The notes: generated by a model from the letters alone, not told the origin. 13,795 bases of DNA from a virus (IMGVR_UViG_2529292889_000013); one strand, 5' to 3'; shown: positions 1,896-8,475, counted from the stretch's first letter. Translations and numbers: made by a program.

Positions 1896-2594
1896 TTACG
1901 GCACTGCGTTAATCAGATTACAAATACCTCTTTTGGCAGGGTCTGAATTCAACTTCTGAAAATTGGCGTTCAACATAGCCGTGTGTAAGTGATTCTCAAC
2001 CTCAAAGAATAAGTCGATTTTGCCCTCTTTGGCTGCCTGTTTCTTCCAAATATTCACTTGGTCATCAGCAATACGACTGGCGCAAGTGAACAAGAACGAA
2101 CTGCCTCTAGGAATGGATGTCGTGCTGTAATACTCACCATCTACTTCTACATATTTAGCTCGGAATGACTCTAAGGTTAGCTCATTGCCGTTCTTGACCG
2201 ACTTAGCTTCTGCCTTACTTGTTTCTTCCTGCTCTTCAGAATGTTTCTGCGCCGACGTGGGTATGTCATTGGCCGCTGTTACGCTGACTGAACTCCCCAA
2301 ACCTTTGAGGCCATTAATTTGGATAAGATAAGCCAGCTCCAGAGCCTTATTATCAGTGAGTTTTCCACGCATATTTACCCACTGACGTTGAACCATTTTT
2401 AGGGTGTCTGCGTTCTCTGGGTTTCCTTTGAGGGCACTAGAATAGGCAGAGCTAAGCTGTTCGTCTAATTTTGACAGACGTTCGTTATCGCAGATTTTAT
2501 GTTCGATTGCTGTCGAAGCCTTTTGGCAGTCAAAGCTGGCTGCAAATGCACCCGGCGATGCCACTAACAATGATGCCAGTAGGATATTTTTCAT
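1896..2594 (-). CDS. Secreted protein with N-terminal DUF1311 / LprI-like (lysozyme-inhibitor-like) domain; self-contained cargo gene
   Basis: Start ATG at 2592-2594 (MKNILLASLLVASPGAFAAS...) with a GGAG 6 nt upstream; the ORF-track start 27 nt further up has no SD. Clear signal peptide, then a Cys-containing SFDCQKAS...HKICDNERL...LDEQL region that I recall as typical of DUF1311. Own terminator; 130-bp intergenic region upstream. Confidence 0.7.
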   Translation of the reverse strand: MKNILLASLLVASPGAFAASFDCQKASTAIEHKICDNERLSKLDEQLSSAYSSALKGNPENADTLKMVQRQWVNMRGKLTDNKALELAYLIQINGLKGLGSSVSVTAANDIPTSAQKHSEEQEETSKAEAKSVKNGNELTLESFRAKYVEVDGEYYSTTSIPRGSSFLFTCASRIADDQVNIWKKQAAKEGKIDLFFEVENHLHTAMLNANFQKLNSDPAKRGICNLINAVP

Positions 2595-2724
2595 ATTCAC
2601 TCCATAAATACAAAAGCGCATTACTATAGCACTTAACCGATCGCTTATCTCGCCCGTTCGTCATTCTTATCTAACCAGAACATGCGACTGCCACAGCACA
2701 TGTCGAGGATTGCTGCATGTCCAG

Positions 2725-3333: not shown

Positions 3334-3627
3334 TCAGTCATTACTGATAGCGCCATAGCGTGATCGATAATTACGCAGGCGCGGGTCAATTTCAGGGAAG
3401 TGGGTATATGTGGCTTTGCGGAATGGTCGGATTGATGTCTGGTAAATTCGCTCGCGTTCTTCTTTCTCTGCAAGCCATATACAATGGCGAAATTCCTTTT
3501 CCTCTTTCGTTTCCTGCGGTAGCGACATTATCCGATCGTAGTTTTTTCTGAATTTATCCAGCACCTCCGATACGGAATTGCCGGAACAGCGGCGCGGGTC
3601 ATCCGCACCATACAGAGGCGCTGGCAT
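3334..3627 (-). CDS. Hypothetical protein, 97 aa
   Basis: ATG at 3625-3627 preceded by AGGAG with a 6-nt spacer, 14 nt downstream of the ssb stop. No family recognised. Confidence 0.65.
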
Positions 3628-3640
3628 GATTTTCTCCTGA

Positions 3641-4147
3641 TTAAATTGCGTGAATAGCGTGACGAGGGAAGGGGAGAGTTACTGGTGCAAAGGGTATATC
3701 GTCGTCAAAATCCATCGGAGGTTCGTTGTGTTGTGCTGGTGATGATTGCTGCTGTGGCTTCTGTGATTGCCTGCTGGCTGCTTGTTGTTTGCTGTCGCCA
3801 ATGCCGCCAAGCATTTGCATCACGCCATTAATTCCGACATGAACCTCGGTTGTGTAACGGTCTTGCCCTGACTGGTCTTTCCACTTTCTGGTTCTCAGCA
3901 TTCCCTCGAAATAAATCTGATCACCTTTTTTCACATACTGCCCCACGACCTCAGCCAGTTTCCCGGATACAGCAACACGATGCCATTCAGTCAATTCCTT
4001 TTGCTCGCCAGTATTTTTATCTCGCCATTGTTCTGACGTGGCTATTGTCAGGTTAGCGAACGCTGTTCCTGATGGTGAGTATCGAACTTCCGGGTCTTGT
4101 CCTACCCGACCAAGGATAATCACCTTATTTATCCCGCGAGAACTCAT
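3641..4147 (-). CDS. ssb: Single-stranded DNA-binding protein
   Basis: OB-fold N-terminus ([20 protein letters not shown]...TEWHRV...[18 protein letters not shown]), Gln/Pro-rich linker and the acidic [11 protein letters not shown] motif. Start taken at ATG 4145-4147 (SD AGGTGGAG upstream); the track start is a GTG 9 nt further up. The ORF continues 15 codons past DDDIPF. Confidence 0.9.
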
Positions 4148-4611
4148 TTGCTCCACCTCTTGCCAGTTTTTATGTTGCTTATAATTGATTGAGATACACC
4201 CATGTCTTTTGCTATCTTGTACTGACTCTCTTTTTCAGAGAGTCTTTTCCTAATTTCTATAACCTGCCACTCTGTTAATTTTGCACCATGATGAGCATGA
4301 CCTTTCTTGGCTCCACGATGCCTTCCTTTTGCTATCTTGTCGTCCATGTTTTCTTGCGCGCTACCTAAAAAGAGATGTTCAGGATTAACGCAGCATGGGT
4401 TATCGCATTTGTGGCAAACCATCTTCCCAGATGGAATGGGGGAGTGATAAAGCTCAAAAGCAACCCGATGAGAAAGCATTGTTACGCCAAAGGCTACAAA
4501 TTTTGTGTATCCTCCTTTGTTTTTTGAATAGGTAGACTCCCAGCAACCTGTTGTTTCATTAACTTTGTAGCTGGACTCGAATCTTTTAATAATTCCGTCC
4601 AAGTGAGACAT
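4144..4611 (-). CDS. HNH homing-type endonuclease
   Basis: 155-aa ORF with a Cys/His cluster [19 protein letters not shown]...HHGAKL typical of phage HNH nucleases, and a C-terminal helix-turn-helix-like tail. The ORF abuts the SSAP stop and overlaps the ssb start. Confidence 0.8.
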
Positions 4612-5319
4612 TTATGCCGCCTGTTTTAGTTCGTTAACTCTGATGTTCATTACCTGAACGCATTTAGCCTGCGCCTCCTCGTTGCCAGCCATTAATTGCC
4701 AGTCACGCTGATAACGCTCGATGAGTTTTTTCTTGTCAGTTTCTGTTGATGCATAATCGCTGAAGTCTTTCAGGATTTGTTCGCAGTCAACCGATGGAGA
4801 TTTCTGGTTGGTATTTTCTGGTGATGGTTTGTTATCTGATGCTGGGATTGCCCATCCCGGCAGCGATGGAGGGAGCCAGTAAAATCCTGTTCCATCCTTC
4901 AGTTTTGCCCTGTGCCACCCCTGCTTTTTATCGAGAGATGTTTGTGCGAAACCTTCCTCAAGGTTATACAGATACCGACCGATTCCCCACTGAACGGCAG
5001 CGCGCTTCATTGCGCCGGAACGACCACCTTTGACGGCTTCTACCTGCGTGTTTTCAGCAGCATCCCATTTGGTTACCCATTCGGAATCAATCCTGATTGA
5101 TATGCCGCATTCAACGCCTCCGTTGTTGGGAATATCGCGGTATTCATTGCGCCATCCTGCTTTGCCGCAAACATCGTCCAGGCGTTTCATGATTGCCCTG
5201 TTCGTGACATAAGCCAGCACCATAGCCCACACCTTGCCATCGCGTGTTTTACCGCTTTGCTGTATTCGCCATTCGATATTTTCAGGGCTGAATGGCTCAT
5301 CGAATTTATTCAAATCCAT
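4612..5319 (-). CDS. Single-strand annealing recombinase, Rad52/Sak-like
   Basis: 235-aa ORF in the lambda bet position next to ssb. Contains an AMKRAAVQWGIGRYLYN motif that I recall as characteristic of Rad52-family annealing proteins. SD GAGGTG 4 nt before the ATG at 5317-5319. Confidence 0.7.
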   Translation of the reverse strand: MDLNKFDEPFSPENIEWRIQQSGKTRDGKVWAMVLAYVTNRAIMKRLDDVCGKAGWRNEYRDIPNNGGVECGISIRIDSEWVTKWDAAENTQVEAVKGGRSGAMKRAAVQWGIGRYLYNLEEGFAQTSLDKKQGWHRAKLKDGTGFYWLPPSLPGWAIPASDNKPSPENTNQKSPSVDCEQILKDFSDYASTETDKKKLIERYQRDWQLMAGNEEAQAKCVQVMNIRVNELKQAA

Positions 5320-5710: not shown

Positions 5711-5845
5711 TTATTTCATTGCGCATAACGCCTCCAGTTGTTTCTTTGCTGCTCTGATTAATTGTTTAACTCGGCGTGATAATTCAGATTCGAGCGGGTA
5801 GAAAGCGGACATGACGCCGCTACCCGCGAGCTGAAAGTGCATCAT
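5711..5845 (-). CDS. cIII-like protein, 44 aa
   Basis: Start moved to the internal ATG (MMHFQLAGSG..., 5843-5845) preceded by AAGGAG with a 6-nt spacer. Central PLESELSRRVKQLIRAAKKQL resembles the lambda cIII helix (PSESLLERITRKLRDGWKRLI). Position upstream of kil matches. Confidence 0.6.
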   Translation of the reverse strand: MMHFQLAGSGVMSAFYPLESELSRRVKQLIRAAKKQLEALCAMK

Positions 5846-5908: not shown

Positions 5909-5935
5909 TATAAAAAAGCCCTCACACTGGAGGGC
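5909..5935 (-). terminator. Intrinsic terminator between the 207-aa gene and cIII (tL-like)
   Basis: GCCCTC-ACACTG-GAGGGC 6-bp GC-rich stem (5918-5935) followed on the minus strand by UUUUUUAU. Confidence 0.55.
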
Positions 5936-6069
5936 AAAGAAGATTTCCAATAATCAGAACAAGTCGGCTCCTGTTTGGTTACGAGCGACATTGCTCCGTG
6001 TATTCACTCGTTGGAATGAATACACAGTGCAGTGTTTATTCTGTTGTTTATGCCAAAAATAAAGGACGA

Positions 6070-6693
6070 TTATGCGGCCTCGGAAGGAAGTCCAATCATC
6101 TTATTCAAATCTTCTACCCGTAAAGCAGGAAGTGCTGTACTTGCTTTATCTGCTTCTTTTGGTAGCAACTCTTTGCTTTCAGGCCAAACTTCAATAAGTC
6201 GCTTAACTGTTGTGACTGAGTTCAAAGCAGCCCATACATTTGATTCGATATCCTTTTTCTTTGCTTCAAGTTTTTGTTGCAATGCGCAGATTTCATCAAA
6301 CCTTTTTGTTATTTCGTGTTCTGCGCTAAACATGCATTTATCTTTGGTCGGAGTAGGGAGCAATATATCTTCGCCGTTGCCGTCTTTCCCATATGAATAC
6401 CAGCCAATCCTTCTGCCAGATACAGTCAGATAAATTGAAGTTGAACGGGCATCGCATGAGTAAAATGAACATCCCAGCTTTTCAAGTTCTTCGCTTATAG
6501 CCATTAACTTGGATGATAACTGATCCACTTCCTCAGTTTTCTTTTTACCGCCAAACGCAACAACTCTGGCGTCAAGTGCAAGCTGGTTCTTTAACTTTGT
6601 TACTTCTTCAAGCTCAGTGAAAACCCCAGATTTAATTAAAGCGTTACGAGCGATTTTCTCTTTCATTCTCGTAGTTAAGCGGATTGATGACAT
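6070..6693 (-). CDS. Hypothetical protein, 207 aa, in the N-cIII accessory slot
   Basis: Start at the internal ATG (MSSIRLTTRMKEKIARNALIKSG..., 6691-6693) preceded by GAGAGGAA, 11 nt below the N stop. Predicted soluble with several charged helical stretches. No family recognised. Confidence 0.7.
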   Translation of the reverse strand: MSSIRLTTRMKEKIARNALIKSGVFTELEEVTKLKNQLALDARVVAFGGKKKTEEVDQLSSKLMAISEELEKLGCSFYSCDARSTSIYLTVSGRRIGWYSYGKDGNGEDILLPTPTKDKCMFSAEHEITKRFDEICALQQKLEAKKKDIESNVWAALNSVTTVKRLIEVWPESKELLPKEADKASTALPALRVEDLNKMIGLPSEAA

Positions 6694-6704
6694 ATTAATT
6701 CCTC

Positions 6705-7004
6705 TCAAATAAGTGGTTTGCTGCCTAATTTCATTTTCTGGCGACCAACACAAGTCACACCCATTTCACTGCGTGGCTTGCGGTAGTAAATACGGTTCTG
6801 TTTACGCTCGACTTCTTCTGCCTTCTTGCAGCGAAGGCTTCCGAGTGATGCTGCTTTATCTGCTCTGACGCAACCAGAGAGCTTTAGCGCAATTTTTCGT
6901 GCTAGTCGCTGCTCTTGCATTGCCTGTTCACGTTGAGCCTGTCTGCGTGCTCTGCGGCGATTTCTGGTGTTATCGTCAGCCAGATATGTAATGACTACTG
7001 TCAT
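6705..7004 (-). CDS. N: Antitermination protein N
   Basis: 99-aa ORF with an N-terminal arginine-rich motif (NRRRARRQAQREQ) and C-terminal GVTCVGRQKMKLGSKPLI, matching lambda N's GITCSGRQKIKGKSIPLI. SD GGAGGT upstream; nutL and PL lie upstream. Confidence 0.88.
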   Translation of the reverse strand: MTVVITYLADDNTRNRRRARRQAQREQAMQEQRLARKIALKLSGCVRADKAASLGSLRCKKAEEVERKQNRIYYRKPRSEMGVTCVGRQKMKLGSKPLI

Positions 7005-7198: not shown

Positions 7199-7285
7199 AG
7201 AATACTGCAGGTATTTTATTTTGTAAATACCCAAGGTATTTATTTTTGGTGAAATAATGATAAGCAAATGAATACAAAGGATATT
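7199..7285 (-). promoter_or_regulatory. PL promoter with OL operators
   Basis: Minus-strand -35 TTTACA (7222-7227), 17-bp spacer, -10 TATTCT (7199-7204). Three 15-bp palindromes of type AATACC-N3-GGTATT: AATACTGCAGGTATT 7201-7215, AATACCCAAGGTATT 7226-7240, and weaker AATACAAAGGATATT 7271-7285. Confidence 0.65.
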
Positions 7286-7498: not shown

Positions 7499-7741
7499 TC
7501 ACTGGTGAAAGGCGTAAATGTCGCGCCTTGATACAACAGGTATAAGCTTGATCCATAGAGGATAAATGCAGATAATCCCTTGTATTGCTATGATCACTAG
7601 AATCATGAAACGAGCTGATCTATGCGCCCAAGCCTGGCTTATTTTTTCTGATAGAGATTTCGCAATAAAAGCATGCGCTAAGCCGTAAATTGTCGAGATT
7701 GCCAACATCCCAAAAAAGCTTGCTATAGCGGTTCCAACCAT
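7499..7741 (-). CDS. Small two-helix membrane protein, about 80 aa, downstream of cI
   Basis: Two hydrophobic stretches (VGTAIASFFGMLAISTIYGLAHAFIA and FMILVIIAIQGIICIYPLWIKLIPVV). Begins just after the cI stop: ATG at 7739-7741, or a TTG at 7760-7762 giving the 87-aa track form. Occupies the position of rexAB in lambda. Confidence 0.5.
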   Translation of the reverse strand: MVGTAIASFFGMLAISTIYGLAHAFIAKSLSEKISQAWAHRSARFMILVIIAIQGIICIYPLWIKLIPVVSRRDIYAFHQ

Positions 7742-7758
7742 AATCGCCCGTTGCGTGA

Positions 7759-8475
7759 TCAAACCAGCCTTAGTTTTGTCTCAATTGCAACGCCTATAAT
7801 CTTACAGTTTCCATTGATTGGCACGAGAGGCCATGCAGGGTTAAGTCCCTTGAGGTATTTATTTCCGCCGTCAATTATCAGCTTCTTGAATGTTGCTTCG
7901 TTAGAGTCAGAAAGTTTTGCTATGACCAAGCTGCCGTTGATCGCCTCCCTTCCGGTATCGAAAAGAACGAATGTTCCCTCTGGAATGCTTAACCCAACCG
8001 GTGCCGTCATTGAATCACCTTCCACTTTAAGCCAGAACGCATTACCTTGAATATGCGCGTCAGACTCAAGCCAAACATCTATGTCTTTAATGGTGTATGG
8101 TTCGCATGCTTCACACCACGAACCAGCCTGGATACTGCTTAACACCGGATACCTCTTTCCTGCTCTGTATTCCCCTGCATACCTTACGTTGGCATCGCTC
8201 TTAAGGCTTTCTGCCTGTTCTGCAACCTTGGCAGCAATTGACTGGCTAAAATCAGCAATTGAGACTTGCAACAATCGTGCAAAACCAGATGCAACCTCAA
8301 CGTTTAGCGCGTTTCTGCCATTAAGATAATGCCCTACCGCTCCTTGGGTGATACCCAGTTCATCAGCGATTGAGTATTGGGTTATTCCCAATTCTTTCTT
8401 TTTTGACTCATACAAAGCCTTAAGCCGCTTAGCGTCTTCGAGCTGTTCTGTCGTCAGTGATTTTTTATTTTCCAT
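7759..8475 (-). CDS. cI: CI repressor (HTH DNA-binding domain plus LexA/S24-like autocleavage domain)
   Basis: 238-aa ORF. N-terminal LTTEQLEDAKRLKALYESKKKELGITQYSIADELGITQGAVGHYLNGRNALN parallels lambda cI; C-terminal AFWLKVEGDSMTAP...FKKLI matches the S24 peptidase domain. Confidence 0.95.
   Translation of the reverse strand: MENKKSLTTEQLEDAKRLKALYESKKKELGITQYSIADELGITQGAVGHYLNGRNALNVEVASGFARLLQVSIADFSQSIAAKVAEQAESLKSDANVRYAGEYRAGKRYPVLSSIQAGSWCEACEPYTIKDIDVWLESDAHIQGNAFWLKVEGDSMTAPVGLSIPEGTFVLFDTGREAINGSLVIAKLSDSNEATFKKLIIDGGNKYLKGLNPAWPLVPINGNCKIIGVAIETKLRLV

Follow-up and report, generated by a model that had tools for sequence, protein, structure and literature searches.

What does a phage gain from the one gene that fills the interval between the antiterminator gene N and cIII in its early-left operon? 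We addressed this question for a window of 13,795 nucleotides, which covers the early part of a prophage of the P22-like/lambdoid kind. It carries int, xis and the early-left set (minus strand) and, after these, cI, cro, cII, O, the gene for a DnaB-like helicase and nin genes. The gene between N and cIII (6070-6693, minus strand) encodes a protein of 207 aa. It is already known, in the sense that its product belongs to a curated family, Nmad5, and that public annotation names it as such. The family itself is notable: it comprises about 2,300 clusters at 50% identity, is confined to phages, has a confidently predicted fold without a solved relative and has one experimental link, to the defence system Tmn. 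The lambdoid copy stands alone behind N and ahead of the first terminator, and it is found in the tractable phages Kapi1, mEp235 and HK542, which makes it a convenient place to learn what Nmad5 proteins do. It could further reveal if those members that have no modification genes nearby are rightly given the 'nucleotide modification' label, which is spreading through RefSeq.

Organization of the gene and its operon

The coding sequence of the Nmad5 gene runs on the minus strand from an ATG at 6693-6691 to a stop codon at 6072-6070. Immediately upstream in the same operon lies a gene for an N-like antiterminator of the phage 21 type (6705-7004, minus strand; phrog_271, 'anti-termination protein N-like', E=8.5e-36), the TGA of which (6707-6705) is separated from the ATG by 11 nt. 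The Shine-Dalgarno sequence GAGAGG (6701-6706, minus strand), which can be read directly, overlaps this TGA and is located 7 nt before the ATG. On the other side, a tL1-like hairpin that resembles an intrinsic terminator (5918-5935, minus strand; GCCCTC-CAGTGT-GAGGGC followed by TTTTTT) was found 134 nt past the stop codon. Transcription from PL through N and the Nmad5 gene would meet it as the first terminator. The slot is closed by cIII, the next gene downstream (5711-5845, minus strand; phrog_550, E=2.8e-12), and kil is likewise located downstream of the terminator. An initial annotation of the locus had described the reading frame with this Shine-Dalgarno sequence, its start 11 nt after the N stop and the terminator behind it, and had assigned the gene to an accessory slot between N and cIII; all of these elements were confirmed in the sequence, the slot being that of a lambdoid (P22-like) early-left operon with N upstream and cIII downstream. 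The operon also encodes Kil, Erf, an HNH endonuclease, SSB and Abc2 (3334-3627; phrog_656, E=2.6e-55). Recognisable DNA-modification genes were absent from the 13.8-kb window.

A longer version of the open reading frame, starting at a TTG at 6753 and encoding 227 aa, was rejected: it would overlap N by 49 nt, and the ATG is where both the Pfam model and the N-terminus conserved in the family (M-x-x-R-L-T) start. The gene is real and not a chance open reading frame, as follows from the signature of purifying selection (a median pairwise dN/dS of 0.27 among 67 distinct alleles) and from the presence of homologues in the roughly 2,300 clusters mentioned above.

A consensus scan yielded a single promoter-like site upstream of N and the Nmad5 gene on the minus strand (7199-7227; TTTACA, a 17-nt spacer and TATTCT), and no such site between this one and the Nmad5 gene. 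Given its position downstream of cI, we infer that this candidate promoter is PL. Since no promoter-like site follows it, and since the first terminator lies past the Nmad5 gene, N and the Nmad5 protein would be the two immediate-early products of PL, and the Nmad5 gene would stay unexpressed in the lysogen.

Between the Nmad5 stop codon and the terminator, the 3' untranslated region is predicted to be structured. It holds a 14-bp hairpin (5996-6027, minus strand), and folding of the RNA from 6075 to 5900 gave a free energy of -52.9 kcal/mol (z = -5.6 relative to shuffled sequences), with the 14-bp hairpin and further stems. A search of Rfam returned zero family matches in the window, this hairpin included. 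The structure could be an element for RNA processing or stability, or it could be part of a compound terminator.

Membership of the Nmad5 family

The initial annotation could not place the product in any family. This view cannot be maintained, as residues 4-203 match the complete model (positions 1-206 of 206) of the Pfam family PF18757 (Nmad5) with 239.5 bits, against a gathering cut-off of 27 (E=5e-71), and the protein also matches PHROG 1965 (function unknown; E=1.5e-81). Nmad5 stands for nucleotide modification associated domain 5 (InterPro IPR040835), and the copies of E. coli appear in RefSeq as 'Nmad5 family putative nucleotide modification protein'. Apart from Nmad5 and phrog_1965 there was no Pfam or PHROG match, NCBIfam gave zero matches, and a Pfam scan of 56 members (E<=1) revealed no second recurrent Pfam family. 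The search of PADLOC-DB v2, a library of defence proteins in which anti-defence proteins are not included, resulted in 0 families at E<=1. The protein was thus already catalogued, as a full-length, stand-alone, single-domain member of the Nmad5 family.

The gene is carried by 211 of the 5426 complete E. coli genomes and is contained in 341 phage records; the plasmid records with the gene number only 6, all of them non-mobilizable. When a profile was searched against 1.84 billion representatives, 2,297 clusters were retrieved at E<=1e-3 and 700 at E<=1e-10. Among the best 150 of the 2,297 representatives nearly all have a length of 190-220 aa and a single matched stretch.

The name Nmad5 is based on a gene-neighbourhood link to genes for the modification of nucleotides or DNA bases, and reportedly goes back to Iyer et al. 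2013. Such a neighbourhood is a contextual feature and not a sequence criterion for membership. It is present for members in Yuavirus, Pam3 and PurZ phages and absent for the gene in the window; the 'nucleotide modification' label is backed by the neighbourhood for a subset of the members only. A literature search under PF18757, IPR040835 and phrog_1965 found nothing, and a defined biochemical activity is not on record for any Nmad5 protein. The NMAD domain that occurs in a validated DefensePredictor defence system was considered as well, and proved to be Nmad2, not Nmad5.

The slot between N and cIII in close relatives

The composition of the slot was compared among 85 close relatives (the window, 80 loci from IMG/VR and 4 genomes). 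The 700 nt upstream of the Nmad5 gene fell into 29 sequence clusters, and the 500 nt downstream, which include the structured 3' untranslated region, into one dominant cluster with 61 of the 85 loci. The terminator hairpin and its T-run were found at a fixed distance of +134 nt from the stop codon in at least 53 of the 85 loci, with substitutions in the loop, and in 67 of the 85 an N frame of the lambda/21 type ends with ...GSKPLI* 11 nt before the Nmad5 start. The many upstream clusters and the one dominant downstream cluster, together with the fixed terminator and the retained end of N, indicate that the 3' end of N, the Nmad5 gene, the structured 3' untranslated region and the terminator travel as a unit. 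The immunity and N module would be exchanged to the left of this unit.

In some of these 67 loci the N end is a remnant, and the intact upstream gene encodes an N of the P22/HK97 type (ending 61 nt upstream) or a Nun of the HK022 type (136 nt upstream). Remnants of N beside another N or Nun were found in, for instance, the related loci L014, L016, L019, L024 and L036, and mark a recurrent recombination junction inside N.

The gene ral precedes the Nmad5 gene in 9 of the 85 loci, ending 36 nt before it, and RefSeq also annotates Ral adjacent to the Nmad5 gene. Ral of lambda is encoded in the same operon interval, but the two proteins have no sequence relationship (Ral is phrog_1055, 66 aa), and the genes co-occur rather than replace each other.

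The product of the gene is 98% identical to gp018 of Escherichia phage vB_EcoP_Kapi1 (QOC59536.1), which was already tagged with the Nmad5 motif. In Kapi1 the gene is located between the immunity region and cIII/kil; the record names no N gene, and it starts the Nmad5 gene at the upstream TTG discussed above (227 aa). No modification gene was found in the 13.7 kb of Kapi1 around its copy. Copies with 93-96% identity are present in mEp235, HK542, HK244, PhiR12 phages and Stx1a phages. The orthologues in Kapi1, mEp235, HK542, HK244 and the Stx1a phages differ from the one in the window in the immunity/N modules upstream.

A separate observation concerns the Stx2a phages of the O157 type, for which 47 records matched; among the matches listed (31), all cover only residues 34-207. 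In these phages, for instance in Stx2_13518 (LC616077.1; L105:196-1504), a 1309-bp element of the IS3 family interrupts the Nmad5 gene after about codon 36. We take this element to be IS629-like on account of its length. The split implies that the gene is inactivated, and dispensable, in those O157 Stx2a phages.

Conserved motifs and predicted structure

Alignments of 56 and of 147 diverse members revealed that conservation is concentrated at both ends of the protein, the middle being variable, with insertions in some members. The N-terminal motifs are M-x-R-L-T-x-x-[RK]-x-x-I-x-x-N-A-x-x-K-x-G and L-A-E-x-V-R...G-G, and the C-terminal motifs are V-x-A-x-L-x-x-V-x-T-x-K-[KR]-L-L-x-x-W-P-E-x-x-E-L-L-P and L-P-x-x-x-V-x-x-L-N-x-x-I-G-L-P. 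The protein encoded in the window has all hallmarks, including the N-terminal R-L-T..I..N-A..K-x-G, the G48-G49 turn, G93, TxK[KR]LLxxWPE and the C-terminal L-P...I-G-L-P. The positions that are nearly invariant among the 147 members are mostly Gly, Pro, Leu and Trp; polar residues among them are only R5, R43, T162, E172 and N197.

An AlphaFold2 model based on the 147 sequences reached a pLDDT of 91.6 and a pTM of 0.82. In this model three long helices (8-72) are followed by a beta-hairpin region (86-122) and by another long helix (127-158); the WPE sequence is borne by short helices, and the tail is less confident. The highest Kyte-Doolittle value over a 19-residue window is 0.6, which implies that a transmembrane segment is absent. 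The expectation in the initial annotation of a soluble protein with helical stretches is in line with both the hydropathy and the model. A Foldseek search against BFVD retrieved only other Nmad5 proteins (E down to 2.6e-12, TM 0.74, probability 1.0). When the PDB was searched by sequence, with the single protein and with the 56-sequence profile, nothing was found below E=0.4, and a search by fold gave no match in the PDB either, enzymes and characterised anti-restriction proteins included.

Pfam, NCBIfam and PADLOC indicated no catalytic domain, and we recognised no cofactor-binding or catalytic motif. The lack of such a motif does not prove that the protein is not an enzyme, as the five conserved polar residues could form an active site of an unrecognised kind. 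A reading of the C-terminal tail as a beta-clamp-binding or helix-hairpin-helix element was discarded, there being, by eye, no convincing match to either consensus.

Gene context in distant relatives

Judged from gene order, modules for replication and nucleotide metabolism dominate the contexts in distant phages, mostly without modification genes. In Acinetobacter phage Scuro, for instance, the order is DUF2800/PDDEXK nuclease, Enc34-type SSB, Nmad5 and DNA polymerase A, and in a further locus (L100) it is SNF2 helicase, Nmad5, DUF2800, SSB and polymerase A; elsewhere (L104) Nmad5 is followed by a directly adjoining polymerase A gene. An N4-like Salmonella phage has the order polymerase I, ThyX, Nmad5, PDDEXK nuclease and primase, and in phage eiAU Nmad5 comes after the helicase-primase gene. 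Temperate early operons form another group of contexts. Besides the N-cIII slot, this group includes the nin region of SPN3UB, an early operon in L098, in which Nmad5 is the first gene, beside a ParB-like gene and a helicase gene, and an early-left operon in L101, in which Nmad5 lies together with an SSB gene and two genes from an MT-A70 methylase gene.

Inserts in structural modules were also found. The gene is located on the opposite strand within the head module of Dhillonvirus and of L103, and in the tail module of a Vibrio phage. The initial annotation had considered that occurrence of the gene at unrelated positions, with a known function, would speak against a role in defence. The family indeed occurs at unrelated positions (nin, replication and head/tail modules), but a function has been established for it at none of them.

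The order aGPT-Pplase1, Nmad5 and a thymidylate-synthase/hydroxymethylase homologue is the same in the Sphaerotilus/Pseudomonas Yuavirus SN1 (L004:4683-7448) and in cyanophage Pam3 (L106:2620-5319), and in both phages Nmad5 is also near polymerase A. This order is the strongest neighbourhood evidence for what may be a link between one branch of the family and thymidine hypermodification.

In two unrelated metagenomic phages (L095:5001-6373 and L097:5001-6205) the Nmad5 stop codon overlaps the start of a gene for a DEDD-type 3'-5' exonuclease (RNase_T-like or Rv2179c-like) by 4 nt. The overlap suggests translational coupling of the two genes and possibly a complex of their products. The first of these two is a PurZ/DatZ phage, in which Nmad5 adjoins 2-aminoadenine genes of the PurZ/DatZ type.

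Escape from Tmn in Dhillonvirus

The only family members for which experimental data are available are those of Dhillonvirus, and the experiments were genetic (PMC11846954). Mutants that escape Tmn carried the nmad5 substitutions K216E in SM_A8 and K296E in SM_S22 (Yamashita et al. 2025, PMC11846954). Reversion of the nmad5 mutation restored sensitivity, and the mutation alone was sufficient for escape; a phage with an nmad5 deletion was viable and remained sensitive to Tmn (PMC11846954). Cloning of the Dhillonvirus gene failed, apparently owing to its toxicity (PMC11846954).

We found in the genomes of SM_A8 and SM_S22 that K216 and K296 are the second K of 'NTDKKLIKAWPE', and that this residue aligns with R165 in 'TTVKRLIEVWPE' of the protein encoded in the window. 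The equivalent position is occupied by K in 28, by R in 13 and by Q in 11 of the 56 members. The K-to-E substitution is, by this alignment, a charge reversal within the hallmark motif TxK[KR]LLxxWPE. The Nmad5 proteins of Dhillonvirus (SM_A8 XEC67403.1; SM_S22 CDS6) belong to the same family over their full length (BF9 orthologue, E=1.3e-54), although they share about 22% identity with the protein from the window and have some 50 aa of insertions in the middle, and although the gene is that of a lytic phage, in which it sits in the head module.

In addition, T2 RIIB, called an early phage replisome factor, was reported to trigger Tmn (2026 preprint, PMC13001434). This report agrees with a replication-associated role of Nmad5 and does not prove it.

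Possible function of Nmad5

We tentatively favour, as a plausible account that still falls somewhat short of probable, a role in phage DNA metabolism: Nmad5 would be an immediate-early accessory without catalytic activity that binds DNA intermediates or the proteins that process them via its two conserved blocks and that is dispensable in the laboratory and exposed to host surveillance. With N and the Nmad5 gene both read from PL before the first terminator is reached, the Nmad5 protein would be made right after infection or induction, and its expression would not depend on antitermination. It would act by binding, as an accessory or adaptor, and its partner would be replicating or recombining phage DNA or the proteins that handle this DNA. 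One part of the binding surface would be the basic N-terminal helix region (R5, K/R11, N17, K21 and R43), and the other part T162-x-K164-[K/R]165-L-L-x-x-W170-P-E172-x-x-E-L-L-P178 with the tail L-P-x-x-x-V-x-x-L-N197-x-x-I-G-L-P. The protein would not be needed for plaques to form, but its surface would be visible to host immunity, as in Dhillonvirus, where the charge reversal at the equivalent of R165 alters the outcome with Tmn.

A connection to DNA metabolism is suggested by the genes that surround Nmad5 in distant phages (those for polymerase A, exonuclease, SSB, helicase-primase and thymidylate synthase) and by Erf, SSB and Abc2 in its own operon. The near absence of the gene from plasmids (the 6 non-mobilizable records) also seems to point in this direction. 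That the protein is not an enzyme is suggested by the lack of a catalytic domain and by the predominance of Gly, Pro, Leu and Trp at the invariant positions. As lambdoid phages rely on the polymerase of the host for replication, the association with polymerase A cannot be literal in the phage of the window. Two observations speak against a role in DNA metabolism: the three inserts in head or tail modules and the copy in the nin region form a pattern that would also be expected of a mobile 'moron' gene, and the interruption by the IS3-family element means that the gene is not needed in the O157 Stx2a phages concerned. Small host-takeover proteins, too, are typically encoded among replication genes, and this synteny does not separate the DNA-metabolism reading from one in which Nmad5 counters a host defence.

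The latter is the alternative that survives best, and we consider it possible though rather unlikely. Nmad5 would in that case be a dedicated immediate-early inhibitor that neutralises an immune or nuclease system of the host, in a way similar to anti-restriction by Ral or by Ocr of T7. Its gene is ahead of the first terminator, as for a protein that is needed on DNA entry, and shares the N-cIII slot with ral; moreover, its mobile distribution over accessory slots and inserts in structural modules and its lack of an enzyme signature would fit such a role. The Dhillonvirus gene can be dispensed with and its cloning seems to be toxic, and one surface substitution in its product alters the outcome with Tmn, but the wild-type gene gives no protection against Tmn and its deletion is without effect (PMC11846954). 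The allele that allows escape resembles one with a gained or altered function. Length and motifs are unusually uniform across phages of Proteobacteria and cyanobacteria, as would be expected of a protein with a conserved target more than of an immune protein that evolves fast, and the commonest distant neighbours are genes for replication and nucleotide metabolism and not anti-defence genes. The gene is also absent from conjugative plasmids, on which many anti-restriction genes occur. The absence of a PADLOC match weighs little in this respect, given that the library covers defence and not anti-defence.

Two more specific proposals were rejected. An inhibitor of RecBCD like Gam or Abc2 is not indicated, as there is no similarity to either and a gene for Abc2 is already present in the window; gam is carried as well by those HK97-like and Stx phages that have the Nmad5 gene. 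An anti-defence gene of the leading region of plasmids does not fit with only 6 plasmid records, all non-mobilizable.

A factor in DNA or nucleotide modification, be it an enzyme or a subunit that confers specificity or serves as a scaffold in modifying the bases of phage DNA, is what the Pfam and RefSeq names imply, and it appears improbable to us. The gene order kept in SN1 and Pam3, the PurZ/DatZ-type neighbours in L095 and the MT-A70 methylase gene two genes away in L101 all point to it. Against these stand the window and the 13.7 kb of Kapi1, both devoid of modification genes, the majority of contexts, in which replication genes occur without modification genes, and the lack of a cofactor or catalytic motif and of a fold match to any enzyme. 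Published reconstitutions of thymidine hypermodification are not known to have required Nmad5, and support for this reading comes from the hypermodifying phages only.

Very improbable, finally, is the leading idea of the initial annotation, namely that the prophage expresses Nmad5 for superinfection exclusion or as a defence factor. In its favour, the interval is hypervariable (upstream sequences in 29 clusters for the 85 loci) and in lambda holds sieB. SieB, however, is an inner-membrane protein with its own promoter in the lysogen, whereas Nmad5 is soluble, lacks a membrane segment and has no PADLOC match, and its gene should be repressed with PL in the lysogen given the 11-nt gap to N and no promoter-like site after the PL-like one. 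Moreover, many members of the family come from phages that are strictly lytic (N4-like, Dhillonvirus, Yuavirus), for which defence by a prophage would be senseless. The probability that remains after these readings goes to an explanation outside them.

Returning to a role in phage DNA metabolism, we also considered a more far-reaching version of it. In that version Nmad5 is a widespread, non-enzymatic, immediate-early factor with a new fold, which docks on the machinery or the intermediates of replication and recombination, and the surface of which around TxK[KR]LLxxWPE is read by membrane NTPases of the Tmn type and perhaps by other defences. We regard this combination as unlikely. If it were true, the lambdoid copy between N and cIII would offer the easiest genetic access to a function common to thousands of phages.

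Other genes in the window

Three further genes in the window deserve mention. The gene for the HNH endonuclease, which has a C-terminal HTH-like region, is located at 4144-4611 (minus strand), between erf (4612-5319) and ssb (3641-4156), and looks like a homing-type insertion in the recombination module. An open reading frame for a hydrophobic protein of 87 aa (7499-7762, minus strand; phrog_6534) is located between cI, with the end of which it shares 4 nt, and the PL-like site. In lambda the position between cI and PL is that of rexAB. By its position, the 87-aa reading frame would be a better candidate for an exclusion factor expressed in the lysogen than the Nmad5 gene. Another open reading frame (1896-2621, minus strand), located between the end of int-xis and the early-left genes, encodes 241 aa with an apparent signal peptide, MKNILLASLLVASPGAFA, and its product is possibly a secreted or periplasmic moron product.
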